30,252 nt of DNA. Origin: a virus (lineage: Duplodnaviria > Heunggongvirae > Uroviricota > Caudoviricetes). Positions 1 through 7,418 of this stretch are shown here, one piece after another. The stretch is from the IMG/VR virus record IMGVR_UViG_2548876960_000006; one strand, given 5' to 3'. Position 1 is the stretch's first letter. Each line of letters starts with the position of its first letter. Position numbers and translations under genes: made by a program. The notes below the pieces were generated by a model. It saw only the letters and a program-made list of their open reading frames with translations. It made no database searches and was not told the origin of the DNA.

Positions 1-129
1 CTATTTATCGGAAGGTTTATCCTGCTGCGGTTTGTTGTTGACCATATCGCACAACATAGAGAGCAGCATTAACCGTACTTTAAAGGGAGAATGACTAAAC
101 ACGCGCATACACCTCTTGAACTCATTCAT
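1..129 (-). CDS. small hypothetical protein (42 aa)
   Basis: ATG at 129..127 with AGGAGG 4 nt upstream; stop at 3..1. Translation MNEFKRCMRVFSHSPFKVRLMLLSMLCDMVNNKPQQDKPSDK. Below the ORF-track size cut-off; AT-rich context downstream of int. Confidence 0.3.
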   Translation of the reverse strand: MNEFKRCMRVFSHSPFKVRLMLLSMLCDMVNNKPQQDKPSDK

Positions 130-296: not shown

Positions 297-1337
297 CTAA
301 GCTGTCGCGACATTTTTGCGACATTTTAGGGGGTTAAGTCGCACAGCATCTTCAAGGTGGCTTGGGGCGAAGTGGGCATAACGCATTGTCATGGTTATGT
401 CAGCGTGGCCGAGAATTTTTTGCAAAACCAGAATGTTTCCGCCGTTCATCATAAAGTGGCTGGCAAATGTATGGCGCAGTACATGGGTAAGCTGGCCGGA
501 GGGGAGTTCAATGCCTGCGCGTTCCAGAGCAGAGCGGAAAGCGTTGTAGCAGGGCTTGGGGAACAGAGCGCCTTTTGTTTCAGGTAATTCGGACAGAAGT
601 TCATCATCAAGGGGAATTGTTCTGTTGCGCTTCCCTTTGGTTTTGACGAACGTGACTTTACCCCCGGCGATCTGGGAGCTTTTCAGCGTTGCCGCCTCAT
701 TCCACCTTGCGCCGGTAGCAAGGCAGATTTTGACAACTAATTCTAGGTACTTAACTTTGCTTCGTTTGCATTCCAGTAAAAGCCGATCAATTTCTTCGGT
801 AGTGAGGAAAGCCATTTCGGTTTCATCAGTACGATACTGTCTGACGTTTTCCAGTGGGTTGGGTGCTGACCATTCACCAATCCGTTTCAGTTCATTGAAC
901 ATCGCTAGAAAGTAAGCATGTTCAAGGTTCATAGTTTTCGGGGAAACCTTAGATACTCTGTTGGTGCGGGCATAATGCCCATCCAGCCTTTTAGCGCGGT
1001 AGGCTGTGAACAACTGGGCATTAAATTCTGTGGCCAGCGGGAATCCCATGCATTCCGCCGCCCAGGTCATAGCATCTTTACGCTTTTCGCCATTGCTCAA
1101 AGCTACGCCGTGGCGTTCATACCACATTGTTATCAGATCTATTAAAGTTCGCTTGTCCTTCCCTTCACCCAGCCACGGAGCTGCGTCTACTTTCTGAAGC
1201 GTATGGTTTTCGAATGCCAGGGCTTCCCCTTTCGTGGCAAATTTTTTACGTATACGCTTCCCGTTCTTGCCATTACTGCGGTTGACGGTGTAGAAGTCGG
1301 CGATCCATTCGCCTGTAGGAAGTTTACGAACGCTCAT
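297..1337 (-). CDS. int: tyrosine recombinase / phage integrase
   Basis: 346-aa ORF with C-terminal catalytic-type motifs HVLRHTFASHF and MRYAHF; lies directly downstream of the repressor gene on the same strand, as in the 186 cI-int arrangement. Confidence 0.9.
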   Translation of the reverse strand: MSVRKLPTGEWIADFYTVNRSNGKNGKRIRKKFATKGEALAFENHTLQKVDAAPWLGEGKDKRTLIDLITMWYERHGVALSNGEKRKDAMTWAAECMGFPLATEFNAQLFTAYRAKRLDGHYARTNRVSKVSPKTMNLEHAYFLAMFNELKRIGEWSAPNPLENVRQYRTDETEMAFLTTEEIDRLLLECKRSKVKYLELVVKICLATGARWNEAATLKSSQIAGGKVTFVKTKGKRNRTIPLDDELLSELPETKGALFPKPCYNAFRSALERAGIELPSGQLTHVLRHTFASHFMMNGGNILVLQKILGHADITMTMRYAHFAPSHLEDAVRLNPLKCRKNVATA

Positions 1338-1984: not shown

Positions 1985-2015
1985 GGCTCCATATTTCGAA
2001 TGTTGCCTTATATAA

Positions 2016-2034
2016 CCCTGTATTGCCGTACAGG
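2016..2034. promoter_or_regulatory. dyad CCTGTA-N6-TACAGG (contains CTGT-N8-ACAG) in the switch region; operator or weak SOS-box candidate
   Basis: Inverted repeat read directly between the pR-like promoter and the cox-like start; a possible leftward promoter overlaps it (TTAACC / TATATA on the minus strand). Centre is not AT-rich, so LexA binding is doubtful. Confidence 0.3.
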
Positions 2035-2055
2035 TTAACTTGTGGAGTTTGCCTT

Positions 2056-2277
2056 ATGCGTCCGAACATTACAATCATCATCCCAGAACCATACCTGCCT
2101 TTAGACGAGTATTGCCGCCGTACTGGCACCAACAAAGAAACCGCCAGGAACCTGATCGAATACGGAAAATTACCTATTAAGCCGAAGGGTAAGCAGAAGA
2201 AAGGCCTGGTCGAAGTCAACATGGCCGCGCTCACTATTCAGGCTTTAAGTGAATGTGACATTTCGCTTAACGCGTAA
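2056..2277 (+). CDS. Cox/Apl-like excisionase-regulator
   Basis: 73-aa ORF from ATG 2056 (GGAG 8 nt upstream), first gene of the rightward operon and divergent from cI, as for P2 cox and 186 apl. Track start at 2023 is TTG. Confidence 0.5.
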   Translation: MRPNITIIIPEPYLPLDEYCRRTGTNKETARNLIEYGKLPIKPKGKQKKGLVEVNMAALTIQALSECDISLNA

Positions 2278-2307
2278 TCCATCCTACGGATTAGGGAGAG
2301 GCAAACA

Positions 2308-2811
2308 ATGTTTGATTACCAGACATCTAAACATGCGCACTTTGATGCGGCTTGCCGAGCATTTGCAACTGAGCACAATCTTGAAGATGTGGCCGCTGCT
2401 GTTGGTATGAGGCCACAGATCTTGCGCAACAAACTGAACCCAGCGCAACCGCACCGCCTAACCTGTGATGAGCTTTTGGCTATCACGGATTACACCGAAG
2501 ATGCACGTTTACTTGATGGGATGTTAGGTCAGATTAACTGCCTTCCATCCGTGCCGGTGAACAATGCCACTGAAGCCAACATGCAACTGTGTGCGCTTAG
2601 CGCCACTGCGTGTGTGGGAGCGATTGCTGGGGAAGCCGTATCAACTGGCCATATGACCGCCGCCCGCCGTGCTCAAATTTTGGATCGCGCCCGCGATGCA
2701 ATCCGTAGCTTATCCGTGCTGGCTTATACCGTTGAAAGCCGTATTCACTCTGCGCCGGTTCTGGCTGCTGCGGTGGATCTGGTCACAACCCACGCCACCG
2801 GCCTGATGTGA
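2308..2811 (+). CDS. CII-like lysogeny-establishment regulator (186 CII-like)
   Basis: 167 aa (186 CII is 169 aa), immediately after the cox/apl-like gene; GGGAGAGG upstream of the ATG. Assignment rests on position and size, not on a verified alignment. Confidence 0.45.
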   Translation: MFDYQTSKHAHFDAACRAFATEHNLEDVAAAVGMRPQILRNKLNPAQPHRLTCDELLAITDYTEDARLLDGMLGQINCLPSVPVNNATEANMQLCALSATACVGAIAGEAVSTGHMTAARRAQILDRARDAIRSLSVLAYTVESRIHSAPVLAAAVDLVTTHATGLM

Positions 2812-2820
2812 GGGAACACT

Positions 2821-2994
2821 ATGAAAGCGTTTGTCACTTACCTGAAAAAAGAATCACCAGCCATGCAGTTGCCGAGTGGTTCAACGGGCTGGATAGAACT
2901 GCCGAACGGTCAGCGCTGGAACCCAGGCCACATTTACAAATTCAATGGCCAGCAGCCGCGCCGCCCGTGGTGGCGTCGTCTGATGGGGCTATAG
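2821..2994 (+). CDS. small hypothetical protein (57 aa)
   Basis: ATG 2821 with GAGG 7 nt upstream; MKAFVTYLKKESPAMQLPSGSTGWIELPNGQRWNPGHIYKFNGQQPRRPWWRRLMGL; stop TAG 2992..2994 sits inside the AGGAGG of the next gene. Competes with the GTG-initiated 207-aa track ORF. Confidence 0.3.
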   Translation: MKAFVTYLKKESPAMQLPSGSTGWIELPNGQRWNPGHIYKFNGQQPRRPWWRRLMGL

Positions 2995-3002
2995 GAGGCG
3001 TT

Positions 3003-3431
3003 ATGGCGATTAGCCAGGAACAGCAAAAGCGCGGGCTGGAGCATTTAAAACAGATCCGCCGCAAATACTTCAGCAAAAGCAGCGAGGCCGCTGAATGGTG
3101 GGACAACTTAACACCGGAGTGGCGCGGCGTAGTGCTTCATGCTGCTGCGGTTACATCTGGTACCGGGGCATTTAAAGCCCATTTAAGTAAGTGCTGCTGG
3201 CGGGAGCTTTATGACCGCCTGGGCTATCGGGACATGATTCAACTGCGCCAGGGCATTTCACGGGCGCGGTTAACGTTTGAAGGTTTCGGCAGTTTACGTG
3301 ACAGCGATTTTTCGAAGCGCACCGCGAACCGCTCGATCAAAAAAGTACATCCCATTTATAGCAGTGGCGGGGTGCAGATGGTGATCGCGCCGCATATCGT
3401 CCATAAGTTCCAGCAACAGGGGAATCACTAA
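3003..3431 (+). CDS. hypothetical early protein (142 aa)
   Basis: ATG 3003 preceded by AGGAGG (2993..2998); same frame as the track ORF 2808..3431, whose own start is GTG. Confidence 0.45.
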   Translation: MAISQEQQKRGLEHLKQIRRKYFSKSSEAAEWWDNLTPEWRGVVLHAAAVTSGTGAFKAHLSKCCWRELYDRLGYRDMIQLRQGISRARLTFEGFGSLRDSDFSKRTANRSIKKVHPIYSSGGVQMVIAPHIVHKFQQQGNH

Positions 3432-3832
3432 TGACCATTATTTCCGTTGAGGGCAAATCGTTGGGGGCAGAGCTGGCTGTGTGGGGCGTCCCGCATAACT
3501 ACGCATTAGCGTTTGCAGAGAAAAGCACCAGTAAAAATGGGCGTATCGCTTTGCATCCGTTCTTCTTCAATGACACTGAACACATGACAAATCCGCGTCA
3601 CTGGCTGGCGATCAATGCTGCTTTCTGGTGCTGCGTGTATCGCGAAGCGGAAAGCAAAGAAGCCCAGATAGAAGCGCTGGCGGGGATTCGTGCAATTTTC
3701 TATACAGCCGGGGCATTGGGAGTTGGCGAGATAAAAGCGCTGATCCAGGAGTGGTGGCGGACAACCTATGAGCTGCACCTGATTCCGGCTCCGAACTACT
3801 CAGCCGCCACAGTACAACCCACTTTTCACTAA
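3431..3832 (+). CDS. hypothetical early protein (133 aa)
   Basis: TAATG overlap with the preceding gene; no recognisable motifs. Confidence 0.45.
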   Translation: MTIISVEGKSLGAELAVWGVPHNYALAFAEKSTSKNGRIALHPFFFNDTEHMTNPRHWLAINAAFWCCVYREAESKEAQIEALAGIRAIFYTAGALGVGEIKALIQEWWRTTYELHLIPAPNYSAATVQPTFH

Positions 3833-3844
3833 TTAACAGCCTGA

Positions 3845-3882
3845 ATTTTTTGGCCACGGTTCAAGTGGCCGGGGATTCTTTT
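3845..3882 (+). terminator. intergenic stem-loop flanked by T-runs (possible terminator or attenuator)
   Basis: TTTTTT, then GGCCAC (3852..3857), 7-nt loop, GTGGCC (3865..3870), then GGGGATTCTTTT; lies between ORFs ending 3832 and starting 3900. Confidence 0.3.
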
Positions 3883-3899
3883 GCCTTAAGGAAACCAAA

Positions 3900-4133
3900 A
3901 TGCACATGACACGTCAGGATTTACCCGCAACAAAATCAGGCACCGACCTGCTGGCCATGCTCACCAAAGCCACGCAGGAAGGTAAAGCCGCAGTTGCTGA
4001 TCTGTGTTCCACCCGTCTGGATAAGCTGGCCACTCATGCGGCCAATGAAGGTTTAAGCGCAACGGAAATCGTTGAGTTAATCCGCGAAGAAGCCGCAGCG
4101 ATTTGCAGCAAAGGCGGTGCGGCATGGCAGTAA
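3900..4133 (+). CDS. hypothetical early protein (77 aa)
   Basis: ATG 3900 with AAGGA 8 nt upstream. Confidence 0.45.
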
Positions 4134-4453
4134 AAATTCATGCGGTAAAAATTGCGCCAAAATATCTTGATGCAGTAGTGGCTGGTCAGAAAAAGGCCGA
4201 GCTGCGAAAAAACGATCGCGGGTATAAAACCGGTGATGTTCTTTCATTGTGCGAGTGGAAGCACGGGAAATACACCGGGCGAGAGTGGGCGGCAGTTATC
4301 ACCCATGTTTTGCCGGTGAATGAAATTATCGCTGATACCGAAAATTGGGTGGTTTTATCTATCCGTTCGCTGTCACCGCTTGAAGTGCTGGAATACATCA
4401 TTTCAAACGGTGTAACAGAGTCGTTAGTTGGCGGAGGTCAATATGGCCGTTAA
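4124..4453 (+). CDS. ASCH/PUA-like domain protein (tentative)
   Basis: ATG 4124 overlapping the upstream stop; N-terminal pattern [40 protein letters not shown] resembles ASCH-type folds; overlaps the Dam start by 11 nt. Track start at 4103 is TTG. Confidence 0.4.
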
Positions 4454-5303
4454 AACTCCGCTTAAATGGGTGGGCAGCAAAGCCCGCCTCATGCCTAAGC
4501 TGCGTCCGCACCTTCCAGAAGGTAAACGCCTGGTTGAACCGTTCGCAGGTTCCTGCGCCGTCATGATGAATACGGATTATGACGAGTATCTGATCGCAGA
4601 TGTGAATCCTGACCTGGTTAATCTTTATAAGGCGATGGCGTATCACACTAATGCGCTGCTGAATGAGCTGGAGATCCTGTTTTCTGCCGGTTCGTTAGGT
4701 GATGTAGAAAGCCGTGCCGTTTTCTATTACGCAGTGCGTGATGCTTTCAATCTTTCTGGTGGTAAGGCCGGTTCTGAATCTGTTGAAAATGCTGCGCGTT
4801 TCCTGTACCTGAACCGGCACTGCTTCAATGGTCTGTGTCGGTATAACCGTCGAGGCCAGTTCAACGTCCCGTTCGGTAAGTACAAAAAGCCTTATTTCCC
4901 CGCTGATGAAATCCGCGCCTTTGCTGAAAAAGCAAAACGCGCAACGTTCATTACTGCCCACTATTCAGAAACGCTTGATTTGGTTCGGGGCGGGAGTGAC
5001 GTTGTTTACTGTGATCCGCCTTATCTGACTGATGCCGACAATTTCACCGCTTACCATGAGCGCGGTTTTTCGCATATGGATCAGGGGCGGCTGGCGCGTA
5101 AACTGCGCCGTCTGGCGGAACGTGGGATTCCCGTTGTCGCGTCAAACAGCGATCTGGAAATGGTGCATTACCTGTATGCAGGGTTTGACGCCGTAAAGGT
5201 TAATGCGCCGCGTAGTGTCGGTGCGGCAGCTGCAAGCCCGAAAACGGCGGCAGAGCTGATTCTTAAATGGCCTTTACCGGCGACTTCTGAGGCCAGCGCA
5301 TGA
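4443..5303 (+). CDS. dam: DNA adenine methyltransferase (Dam family, N6-adenine)
   Basis: DPPY catalytic motif ([14 protein letters not shown]), N-terminal [10 protein letters not shown] and EPFAGS AdoMet-binding-type motifs; GGAGG 5 nt upstream of ATG 4443. Track start at 4428 is TTG. Confidence 0.9.
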
Positions 5304-7321
5304 CGCTGGCAATAAACGAACAATGCTATGCCGTTGATGCCTGGAGGCGGGAAACTTTCGCACCAGGCACACCGGCAGACGCGACTATCACAGAACGCCG
5401 CCTGTGGGCTGTAAACCCGCAGGATTATGAATGGCGATCCCGGTACCTGCATGAGATACCCGACTGGTTAGCCGGGTATTTTGGCCGTCGCTATGAAAAG
5501 CTTTTTTCTGGCCGTGACGGGCGTCGCCGTGCCAATACATTCCTGCGCAAAACAATCGGTGAGAATGTATTGCCACGTCTGCGCAAAGTGGCTGCGCGTT
5601 ACTCGCTGGCCGCTGATGCTGCTGATCTTCCTTTTGGTAAGTCGCTGGAGCGCTTGCCGTCACTAGACCGTCCTGATCTTAAAAAACTGGCTGGCCAGGT
5701 ATCTGGCTGGATTTCCCAGTCACTTTATGACTTCACCGAACAGTTTGATTCCGGCACTGACGACGCCAGAGAGCTGCATCGCCGCACTCTGGAATCTTAC
5801 CGCCATCTTTGTGCCTGTTGCCTGATGCTGAATAACCAGCCGCCGTACTGGACTGAACATGAGGCCAATGAAGGTCAACTGGAAATGCGTAAGGCGGAAT
5901 CCGGGATACTGCGCATGATGGCGCCGGAATGGTGGTACCTGCGTCTTAAACGTGCGCGTGATACGCAGCGCGAGCACATGGCCATTGCGGTGGGACAGGT
6001 GCAAAAAGCGGCCAGCGCTTATGTATCCCGCAAAACACTGGGTGAATGGATAGACCAGAAAAAGCGGAATCTGGAGTTCTTTAAAAAGTTTGATCTGCTG
6101 AATGATGAGGGGCTGCGCATTGCACTGGACAGCATGGTGCACCGCAGCGTTGCAAATCCGGCGATCCGTCGATGTGAACTAATGGTAAGAATGCGAGGGT
6201 TTGAAGATATGGCCAATGAAGAAGGGCTGGCCGGTGAGTTTTACACTATCACCGCGCCATCACGTTTCCATGCGGTTCACAGCAAAGGGGGCTTTGTATC
6301 GCAATGGGATGGAAGTACGCCGCAGGATACCCAGCGCTATTTATGCGGCGTATGGGCAAAAGCGCGTGCAGCGATCTCGCGTGCTGGTATCCATGTATTT
6401 GGGTTTCGGGTTGTTGAGCCTCACCATGACGGGACACCGCACTGGCATATGTTGCTTTTTATGCGTCCGCAGGACGTGGACACGGTACGCGATATTCTTT
6501 GTTATCACGCCAGAATTACCGATTCTGAAGAACTGCAATCTGAAAAGGCGCTGAAGGCGCGTTTTCATGTTGAAGCTATCGATCCCGCCAAAGGTTCGGC
6601 CACGGGCTACATCGCGAAATACATTTCAAAAAATATTGATGGTTTTGCGCTGGATGGTGAGCAGGACGAAGAAACCGGCGAAAACCTGCGTGATATGGCT
6701 AAGTCCGTTTCCGCGTGGGCTTCACGCTGGCGTATTCGCCAGTTTCAGCAGATTGGTGGTGCGCCGGTAACCGTCTGGCGTGAGCTGCGTCGGTTGCGGG
6801 ATCAGGTACTGACAGATCGCAGAATGGATGCGGTTCTGGCCGCTGCTGATGTCGGGGACTGGGCTGCATATACCCAGGCGCAGGGAGGTGCACTGGTTGC
6901 CCGCCGTGATCTGGTTGTTCGTCTGGCCTATGAAATTACGGAACAGGGCAACGAATACGCGGAGGACGTGCAGCGCGTACAGGGTGTTTATTCTCCTTTG
7001 ATTCCTGATTCAGAAGTTTGCACCCGTCTGGTTAAGTGGCAAAAGGTTGCGAAGTTGGCCGAAGCGCCAGCGGAGGCGGGTTTTTCTGGCGGCAACGCCG
7101 CCCCTTGGAGTTCTGTCAATAACTGTACGGAGGGGGGAACCCGCAGACGGTTAAAACTGGAATTACGCAGTCGGGGTTTTGAGGGTTCCGATGAAGAAAT
7201 AGCCATTCTCCTGCGGGGTAGTGGTTTGATATTTGGTCAGGGGGCACTGATTTACCGCAATGGGCGGTTGAAGGAAACACGAAACGAACCATTGCAGGAG
7301 CTTTGGCCGGGGTGGTTATAG
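5300..7321 (+). CDS. rolling-circle replication initiator endonuclease (P2 gpA / 186 A family)
   Basis: 673 aa; HUH-type motif HPHHDGTPHWHMLLF and tyrosine motif GYIAKYISK; ATGA overlap with the dam stop. Confidence 0.85.
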   Translation: MTLAINEQCYAVDAWRRETFAPGTPADATITERRLWAVNPQDYEWRSRYLHEIPDWLAGYFGRRYEKLFSGRDGRRRANTFLRKTIGENVLPRLRKVAARYSLAADAADLPFGKSLERLPSLDRPDLKKLAGQVSGWISQSLYDFTEQFDSGTDDARELHRRTLESYRHLCACCLMLNNQPPYWTEHEANEGQLEMRKAESGILRMMAPEWWYLRLKRARDTQREHMAIAVGQVQKAASAYVSRKTLGEWIDQKKRNLEFFKKFDLLNDEGLRIALDSMVHRSVANPAIRRCELMVRMRGFEDMANEEGLAGEFYTITAPSRFHAVHSKGGFVSQWDGSTPQDTQRYLCGVWAKARAAISRAGIHVFGFRVVEPHHDGTPHWHMLLFMRPQDVDTVRDILCYHARITDSEELQSEKALKARFHVEAIDPAKGSATGYIAKYISKNIDGFALDGEQDEETGENLRDMAKSVSAWASRWRIRQFQQIGGAPVTVWRELRRLRDQVLTDRRMDAVLAAADVGDWAAYTQAQGGALVARRDLVVRLAYEITEQGNEYAEDVQRVQGVYSPLIPDSEVCTRLVKWQKVAKLAEAPAEAGFSGGNAAPWSSVNNCTEGGTRRRLKLELRSRGFEGSDEEIAILLRGSGLIFGQGALIYRNGRLKETRNEPLQELWPGWL

Positions 7322-7398
7322 GTGTGCATGTGTGTGTAACACATTCATTTGTCAGTAGATGGCAGGAAATTAAATTTCACAATTCGTGCTTTAAGGTG

Positions 7399-7418
7399 TA
7401 CTGTATGTATATCCAGTT
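7399..7418. promoter_or_regulatory. LexA-box-like SOS operator candidate
   Basis: TACTGTATGTATATCCAGTT; the 16-mer core CTGTATGTATATCCAG matches consensus CTGT-(AT)4-ACAG at 14 of 16 positions; about 25 nt upstream of the ATG at 7441. Confidence 0.4.

Follow-up and report, generated by a model that had tools for sequence, protein, structure and literature searches.

The closest described counterparts of the locus analysed here are the early lytic operon of phage 186, which runs apl-cII-fil-dhr-tR1-orf79...orf84-A, and the early region of phage P2. According to the 186 GenBank record, the terminator tR1 is anti-terminated early in lytic growth, orf79 is not essential, and translation of A appears to need translation to the end of orf84. 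In the P2 GenBank record, B is noted as needed for DNA replication, in lagging-strand synthesis; PMC12661323 counts its product gpB among the helicase loaders, with Odegrip et al. 2000 as the source, a paper also cited in PMC11087808. The annotated early regions of these two phages serve as comparator records for a block of five open reading frames (ORF1 to ORF5) at positions 2821-4453 of the IMG/VR virus record IMGVR_UViG_2548876960_000006, a 30,252-nt stretch of Caudoviricetes DNA referred to below as the window. The block, which lies between cII and dam, is best explained as the central portion of the pR-type early lytic operon in a Peduoviridae prophage of the 186/ESSI-2-like type, in which ORF2 and ORF3 together would have a replication role; we regard this full explanation as likely.

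The window carries, in order, mntS (1-129, minus strand), an integrase gene, the CI repressor gene, a Cox/Apl-like gene, cII, the block, dam, A, ogr and the portal gene, which is the layout of a P2/186-family (Peduoviridae) prophage of the 186/ESSI-2-like type. As in 186, cII is followed by fil, a slot, a terminator, a DUF2732 gene, cargo and A, and in both phages A begins within the final cargo gene, which here is dam. The two phages differ in the slot, occupied by dhr in 186 and by the ORF2-ORF3 pair in the window, and in the cargo, which comprises a DksA-like zinc finger, an exonuclease, DUF5405 and the PAPS-reductase-like orf84 in 186, whereas the window carries DUF3850 and Dam; comparable proteins share only 39-46% identity. 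The closest phage records are the Escherichia phages ESSI2_ev015 and ev040 (Peduoviridae, Quadragintavirus), with ~94% nucleotide identity across positions 2200-7400. These phages and matching E. coli prophages share the genes and order cII-Fil-ORF2-ORF3-DUF2732 and DUF3850-Dam-A with the window, and in ESSI2_ev015 and ev040 DUF2732 is separated from DUF3850 by a cassette for a 3'-5' exonuclease of the RNase_T family; the window lacks this cassette. The block is present in 31 of 5,426 complete E. coli genomes at 80-99% identity, and the core gene order is retained in all eight genome loci of the core-order comparison, drawn from at least six named genera and one unclassified bacterium.

The region is ordinary for the P2/186 family, a standard early operon with one slot swapped, and as found it adds little: a prophage stretch that looked anonymous is the standard 186/P2 early operon. 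Counterparts of three of the ORFs and of an intergenic hairpin are already known from 186 and P2, as is the type of linkage between ASCH domains and Dam. The new part is modest and consists of the obligate ORF2-ORF3 pair, the probable kinship of ORF2 with gpB and DUF5347, and the confidently predicted fold of ORF3, which has no recognisable relatives. A preliminary description of the block had listed its ORFs and their order, two rival sets of reading frames (a GTG-initiated 207-aa ORF as opposed to a 57-aa ORF plus a 142-aa ORF with AGGAGG), a hairpin flanked by T-runs, and a last ORF that is ASCH-like and overlaps the Dam ATG (4443) by 11 nt. All of these are present at the positions it gave, and the ASCH-like call proved correct. 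That description had also left all five ORFs without a function, which now holds for ORF3 only, since ORF1 is assigned to Fil, ORF4 to DUF2732, ORF5 to DUF3850 and ORF2 to a remote relative of gpB and DUF5347. It had named clear homology of all ORFs to known replication or regulatory proteins, such as 186 fil/dhr or P2 B, as the result that would speak against its reading; such homology was found for part of the block, with ORF1 a Fil homologue at 40 bits against a PF10893 cut-off of 25.

ORF2 (3003-3431, plus strand) encodes a helical protein of 142 aa and has AGGAGG 8 nt upstream; ORF3 (3431-3832, plus strand; 133 aa) always comes next and overlaps it by 1 nt within TAATG. The structure of ORF3, a small alpha/beta N-terminal unit joined to a three-helix bundle, is predicted with confidence and has no specific structural match. 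Neither protein gave a meaningful match in Pfam, NCBIfam, PADLOC or PDB sequence searches. Both families are small and of restricted range, with 107 database clusters for ORF2 and 93 for ORF3, the named members being all from Enterobacterales and all labelled 'hypothetical'; when 1.84 billion proteins were searched in full with the ORF2 profile HMM, no more than 40 representatives emerged. The two genes occur together in all eight genome loci (at least six named genera). Additionally, 160 IMG/VR loci were sampled, 80 selected by DUF3850 similarity (at least 65% identity) and 80 by Dam similarity, and every architecture among them that contains ORF2 also has ORF3. The pairing persists in distant relatives, in which ORF2 is 22-33% and ORF3 40-47% identical. 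Across the sequences compared, ORF2 and ORF3 form an obligate two-gene module, newly described here. Profile comparison of ORF3 with P2 B, DUF5347 and DUF2732 gave no signal, and among the five ORFs ORF3 alone stays without assignment.

The slot between fil and the terminator is filled in different ways in other 186/P2-like phages: by Dhr in 186, by DUF5347, by a 100-aa B-like protein, by a 108-120-aa B-like protein with an ORF3 homologue, or by full-length gpB/RepB. Among the gene orders observed are cII-Fil-{Dhr | DUF5347 | short B | ORF2+ORF3 | short-B120+ORF3}-DUF2732, and a Serratia locus (L017) carries full-length RepB just 5' of DUF2732. In profile-profile comparison, ORF2 is linked to the 120-aa B-like proteins at 97.5% (E 6e-12) and to the 100-aa B-like proteins at 87.9% (E 3e-6), and these in turn are linked to gpB and Serratia RepB at 92.7% (E 4e-7) and 96.9% (E 1e-10), respectively. 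ORF2 also reaches DUF5347 at 75% (E 2.5e-5), and DUF5347 reaches the pooled B set at 94.5% (E 8e-8); control families stayed at or below 0.4%, whether set against the pooled B set (five families) or against ORF2 (six families). By blastp, the 100-aa B-like proteins match residues 44-82 of P2 gpB with 46-49% identity over 35-39 aa (E ~1e-9), and they also give sub-threshold Pfam matches to DUF5347. ORF2 itself has no match to the Pfam DUF5347 model (PF17282) at E<=5, and two distant members of its family reach E 0.066 at best, so the comparisons point to a family related to DUF5347 rather than to a member of it. P2 gpB, DUF5347 and the short B-like proteins share with ORF2 both the position just 5' of the terminator and the DUF2732 gene and the core motif W..L...R..(V/L).(L/F)HA.(L/V) ... 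C.W.E(L/M) ... R. They differ in that gpB appears to have two such domains in 166 aa, whereas ORF2 has one and a C-terminal tail, and in that gpB, DUF5347 and the 100-aa B-like proteins occur without ORF3, whereas ORF2 always occurs with it. Taken as a transitive link, these matches make kinship of ORF2 with DUF5347 and with the gpB N-terminal domain probable, which is a modest new lead.

As a side observation on P2 gpB itself (L020 1959-2459), the 100-aa B-like profile matches residues 30-83 at 97% and has a second, weaker match in the C-terminal half (75%, E 2.5e-5), which suggests that gpB carries an ORF2-like domain twice, through internal duplication.

Because of this homology chain and the equivalence of the slot, we infer that the target of ORF2 and ORF3 lies in the replication machinery of the host, with DnaB the most likely candidate, and that they serve the rolling-circle replication of the phage. 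Several points weigh against carrying the function of gpB over to ORF2. The direct hhalign comparison of ORF2 with P2 gpB is not significant (5-14% probability), the link runs through intermediate sequences and small profiles, and the Pfam models searched did not include PF26815 (Phage_RepB). ORF2 aligns with only one half of gpB (residues 30-106), its C-terminal 35 aa have no counterpart, and the full two-domain architecture of ~166 aa is absent from it; with one gpB-like domain where gpB appears to have two, the same activity is not guaranteed. Moreover, an unrelated replication inhibitor, Dhr, fills the same slot in 186, so that position cannot separate a loader from an inhibitor. The pair might accordingly be read as an inhibitor of host replication, a functional analogue of Dhr and not a promoter of phage replication: it sits exactly where dhr does, after fil and before tR1, one sampled locus (L174) has Dhr in that place, and a protein with a single gpB-like domain could sequester DnaB by binding but not loading it. 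We consider this unlikely, since the slot suits a loader equally well and the homology that can be detected leads to the gpB/DUF5347 group, while kinship to Dhr is lacking at the sequence level (probability 0.1-0.3%). Homology of ORF2 or ORF3 to 186 Dhr was rejected (hhalign at or below 0.44% for both), and in profile comparison Dhr showed no relationship to gpB, DUF5347 or the B-like proteins either. The proteins of the post-fil slot mostly appear related, which offers a first testable function for DUF5347 and the ORF2 family, namely engaging DnaB; this possible gpB-related group may also bear on the differing needs of P2-like phages for host helicase-loading functions.

Two reading frames compete at 2808-3002. 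A 207-aa ORF with a GTG start (2808-3431, plus strand) spans fil and continues into ORF2, and one could take it for the true gene and fil for a spurious overlap, given that no stop codon interrupts it in the window or in the three relatives closest to it. In the comparison of the window with 11 relatives, however, the frame 5' of the ORF2 ATG is open only in those four sequences and holds stop codons in 8 of the 11 relatives (L005-L012), in which ORF2 also lies in another frame relative to fil. None of the 12 sequences interrupts the Fil frame, the Fil product passes the Pfam threshold, and the third-position substitution bias of the region follows this frame and not the long one; the first 65 codons of the 207-aa ORF match no family in Pfam, PHROGs or NCBIfam, and RefSeq/PGAP annotation in relatives shows Fil and a 142-aa protein. 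The chance that the long ORF is the real gene is minimal, and it is rejected as a chance 5' extension of ORF2 across fil; by these sequence comparisons the conflict can be taken as settled in favour of Fil and ORF2. Counted in the annotated frames against relatives at 70-78% nucleotide identity, substitutions at codon positions 1/2/3 number 5/5/23 in Fil, 26/16/66 in ORF2, 27/22/62 in ORF3 and 13/8/34 in DUF2732. As they fall mostly at the third position, these four are true protein-coding genes under purifying selection and not chance ORFs.

ORF1 (2821-2994, plus strand) encodes a 57-aa homologue of the Fil-family cell-division inhibitor of phage 186. It matches PF10893 (Phage_186_Fil) above the gathering score (E 3e-10, 40.1 bits, cut-off 25) over residues 1-37 and model positions 1-34 of 56, as well as phrog_7623 (5e-30) and phrog_816 'cell division inhibitor' (3.5e-8), and tblastn aligns it with 186 fil at 39% identity (E 1e-3). 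The gene starts 9 nt past the cII stop, the same place as in 186 and in nearly all sampled relatives. The N-terminal ~45 aa are conserved, while the C-terminal third is poorly conserved and unlike 186 Fil. By homology to 186 Fil, we infer a host-takeover gene whose product would block host cell division. The length of the protein varies from 57 aa here, ending 8 nt before the ORF2 start codon, to 62-75 aa in more distant relatives (L005-L012), and in most of these relatives the longer Fil runs through the ORF2 start, so that stop and start codons overlap.

Between ORF3 and the DUF2732 gene lies an intrinsic-terminator-like hairpin with a GGGGATTCTTTTG tail (3850-3883, plus strand), detected by terminator scan, folding and conservation. 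Its GC-rich arms (3850-3857 and 3865-3872) enclose a 7-nt loop, with T-runs at 3846-3851 and 3876-3882. The significance of the hairpin comes from its conservation and not from its stability, which by itself is unremarkable (z = -1.3): the stem is retained in all ten distinct relative sequences aligned (at least six genera), one stem pair is altered on both sides among relatives, and the loop sequence is free to vary. The tail GGG(G/C)ATTCTTTTGCC is common to this hairpin and the annotated tR1 of 186, and the 3' tail GGGGATTCTTTTGCC differs little from that of tR1, which likewise lies directly 5' of the DUF2732 gene; the P2 record notes a 'putative rho-independent terminator' at the equivalent place. 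Because of the conserved stem, the matching tail and the shared site in 186 and P2, the hairpin is read as the counterpart of tR1, with putative terminator activity and read-through. Such a terminator, unless read through, would restrict how much transcription reaches the replication half of the operon. Two points weigh against this reading: the T-tract is interrupted (TTCTTTT), and termination and read-through in this phage would both be taken over from the annotation of 186. It was also observed that pairing is possible between the terminator T-tract and the DUF2732 Shine-Dalgarno (SD) region (AAGGAAAC, window positions 3873-3895). This second predicted helix is mostly conserved, and in the folding model it hints at read-through tied to translation initiation.

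The first gene past the terminator, as in both 186 and P2, is the DUF2732 gene (ORF4; 3900-4133, plus strand; 77 aa), a homologue of 186 orf79 and P2 orf80 that matches PF10809 above the gathering score (4.4e-12, 46.2 bits, cut-off 25). It is followed by ORF5 (4124-4453, plus strand; 109 aa from its ATG), a DUF3850/ASCH-fold gene of the P2 Orf91 family. ORF5 matches PF12961 (DUF3850; 6.3e-23, 81.2 bits, cut-off 22.9), PF04266 (ASCH; 3.8e-5, 24.8 bits, cut-off 21.2) and, by sequence homology, the solved ASCH-fold structure PDB 3IUW (E 2e-8). With P2 Orf91, itself annotated as DUF3850, and with 3IUW and YqfB it shares a full-length domain, a GxKxxExR-type motif (G21-K23-E26-R28) and the ASCH fold; P2 differs in that Orf91 lies 3' of A and no dam is present, whereas here the DUF3850 gene lies 5' of dam. 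Matches to DUF3850 by tblastn occur in 508 phage records of many kinds, and no DUF3850 protein is known to have a tested function. The neighbouring dam gene (4443-5303, plus strand), translationally coupled to A, encodes a Dam-family N6-adenine DNA methyltransferase with a D12-class methyltransferase domain (PF02086, 1.5e-65, above the Pfam threshold; TIGR00571, 7e-80, 268 bits, cut-off 115), an invariant DPPY motif at D191-Y194 and a match to the PADLOC orphan methyltransferase model (3e-91). The enzyme is thus a DNA adenine methylase, with GATC as its probable site.

How the two genes travel was judged from the IMG/VR loci. In the DUF3850-selected set, dam lies immediately 3' of DUF3850 in 76 of 80 loci, and two of the other four contigs end first; in the dam-selected set, only 17 of 80 loci carry DUF3850, with the gene order reversed in one. 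DUF3850 without Dam is found in P2 (after A), in the Serratia locus L017 and in L185, and outside P2/186-like phages the examination of T1-like, Webervirus-like and Clostridium phages gave no sign of a general link between DUF3850 and methylases. These counts show that the DUF3850 subfamily of the window travels with Dam, while Dam does not need DUF3850. As side observations, one IMG/VR prophage (L167 1857-2564) has a 235-aa ORF with a DUF3850 match directly 5' of dam, which may be a fusion or an over-extended ORF call. Between the window lineage and a 186-like lineage (L013-L016, L019), DUF3850 is the best conserved of the proteins compared, at 61-73% identity, with Dam at 50-54%, cII at 46-49% and A at 35-38%.

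The operon can be divided into a fixed half, cII-fil-ORF2-ORF3-terminator-DUF2732, and a variable half, from DUF2732 to A, which would serve as a cargo slot for nucleic-acid-modification genes, here DUF3850/ASCH and Dam. The content of this stretch changes among relatives: ev015 has a 3'-5' exonuclease with DUF3850 and Dam, others have Dam alone, a DksA-type zinc finger with DUF3850 and Dam, or DUF5405-type genes, and further relatives have a Dcm-like ORF (seen from its N-terminal sequence only) or a PAPS-reductase-like gene. The exonuclease-free layout of the window occurs in 17 of 80 sampled IMG/VR loci. The stretch behaves as a hotspot for DNA-modification cargo. Across three loci (L134 2605-3501, L146 4448-4738, L187 2105-3118) the cargo observed consists of ORFs starting with a Dcm-like YYNEIDP motif and of a PAPS-reductase-family gene directly after Dam.

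The genes of the variable half are joined head to tail, DUF2732 and DUF3850 overlapping by 10 nt, DUF3850 and Dam by 11 nt, and Dam and A by 4 nt (ATGA), so that translation would run from DUF2732 through DUF3850 and Dam to A; the 1-nt overlap of ORF2 and ORF3 fits this coupling pattern. Dam here holds the position that orf84 holds in 186. The left cassette junction GGCGGTGCGGCATGGCAGTAAAA (4113-4135, plus strand) carries the SD and the start of the DUF3850 gene, and the right junction GGCGGAGGTCAATATGGCCGTTAAAA (4430-4455, plus strand), an imperfect direct repeat of it, carries the SD and the start of dam; both proteins start MAVK. The shared motif of ~25 nt, GGCGG(T/A)G...ATGGC(A/C)GT(A/T)AAAA, covers the SD, the ATG and the first codons. 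It is also found at the DUF2732-Dam junction of a relative without DUF3850 (L003, 4311-4340) and at both exonuclease junctions of L001 (3411-3440 and 4005-4030). Given this shared motif, recombination between its copies would add or remove cassettes and yield the variants seen, including those without DUF3850 and those without the exonuclease.

The role of DUF3850 beside Dam allows more than one reading. The preliminary description saw the block as accessory genes for anti-defence or host takeover, with DUF3850 and Dam forming a pair against restriction-modification or other defences; in this scheme Dam protects GATC sites and the ASCH protein reads or modulates m6A or otherwise modified nucleic acid. 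Fil is indeed a host-takeover gene by homology, and the pairing it pointed to is recurrent, with DUF3850 directly 5' of dam in the 76 loci mentioned above, across two lineages with no more than ~38% identity between their A proteins, while the exonuclease cassette inserts 5' of the pair and never within it. The fusion or operon linkage of ASCH domains with N6A methyltransferases, from which ASCH is predicted to be an m6A reader, had already been published (PMC4738411), and a PUA/ASCH-clan domain in a defence system is reported to bind Dam-derived m6-dAMP (bioRxiv 10.64898/2026.01.15.699771). The pairing is one-sided, however, as the 17 of 80 dam-selected loci and the Dam-less DUF3850 genes of P2, L017 and L185 make clear; no methyltransferase gene adjoins DUF3850 in the T1-like and Clostridium phages examined, and the association could be mere cassette linkage. 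PADLOC models matched no ORF except Dam (as an orphan methyltransferase), GATC avoidance was not seen in the window (126 sites observed against 135 expected), the host usually has its own Dam, so that in E. coli or Salmonella there is little to be won by protecting GATC, and m6A reading by ASCH, predicted from the same methyltransferase linkage, is explicitly described as unconfirmed experimentally (PMC11037411). An anti-defence purpose for the block is on balance improbable.

It is somewhat more doubtful that DUF3850 is an RNA-directed ASCH protein, whether an RNA binder, an ac4C eraser/amidohydrolase or an RNase, that has nothing to do with Dam and neighbours it only as shared cargo. PHROGs labels the family 'RNA-binding protein', the characterised ASCH protein YqfB acts on ac4C (PMC6972931), and DUF3850 is widespread in unrelated phages without an adjoining methyltransferase, yet this reading does not explain why DUF3850 of 186-like phages shows its one-sided association with dam. 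YqfB is defined by a Thr-Lys-Glu triad (Lys21, Thr24 and Glu74, with Arg26), which is incomplete in the DUF3850 protein: in a weak alignment (E 0.16), Lys21 corresponds to K23 and Arg26 to R28, while the nucleophile Thr24 falls on E26, a residue that does not vary across aligned DUF3850 proteins. Since the nucleophile is replaced by glutamate in this weak alignment, a YqfB-type N4-acylcytidine amidohydrolase is unlikely. Within the early-operon explanation favoured here, DUF3850 would be a small PUA/ASCH-fold protein, a putative binder of nucleic acid or nucleotides that accompanies Dam.

Two further-reaching readings are a long shot: that ORF2 and ORF3 are an unrecognised two-protein helicase loader of the gpB type or DnaB-hijacking device, and that the Dam-linked DUF3850 binds m6A DNA or free m6-dAMP. 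If the former were true, gpB, the short B-like proteins, DUF5347 and ORF2 would make up one superfamily of small DnaB-directed phage proteins. If the latter were true, DUF3850 might soak up Dam-derived nucleotides so that PUA-Cal-HAD and similar sensors do not detect them or, alternatively, act as a reader guiding either the phage methylase or replication towards methylated sites. As this DUF3850 subfamily occurs almost only beside dam in this phage group, it provides a compact natural test case for ASCH as an m6A reader.

The block is bounded on its 5' side by cII (2308-2811, plus strand), which encodes a CP76-family lysogeny activator (PF06892, 5.7e-47, above the Pfam threshold) with 44% identity to 186 CII, and on its 3' side by the gene for the replication endonuclease A of the gpA family (5300-7321, plus strand), which has 46% identity to 186 A and is so annotated in relatives. 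A promoter scan found no sigma-70-like promoter within the block, and an Rfam search of positions 2000-5400 gave no match. At the left end of the window, the integrase gene (297-1337, minus strand) adjoins mntS, which also neighbours a related E. coli prophage (NZ_CP046006), and this common neighbour suggests that the two prophages share an attachment site beside mntS.

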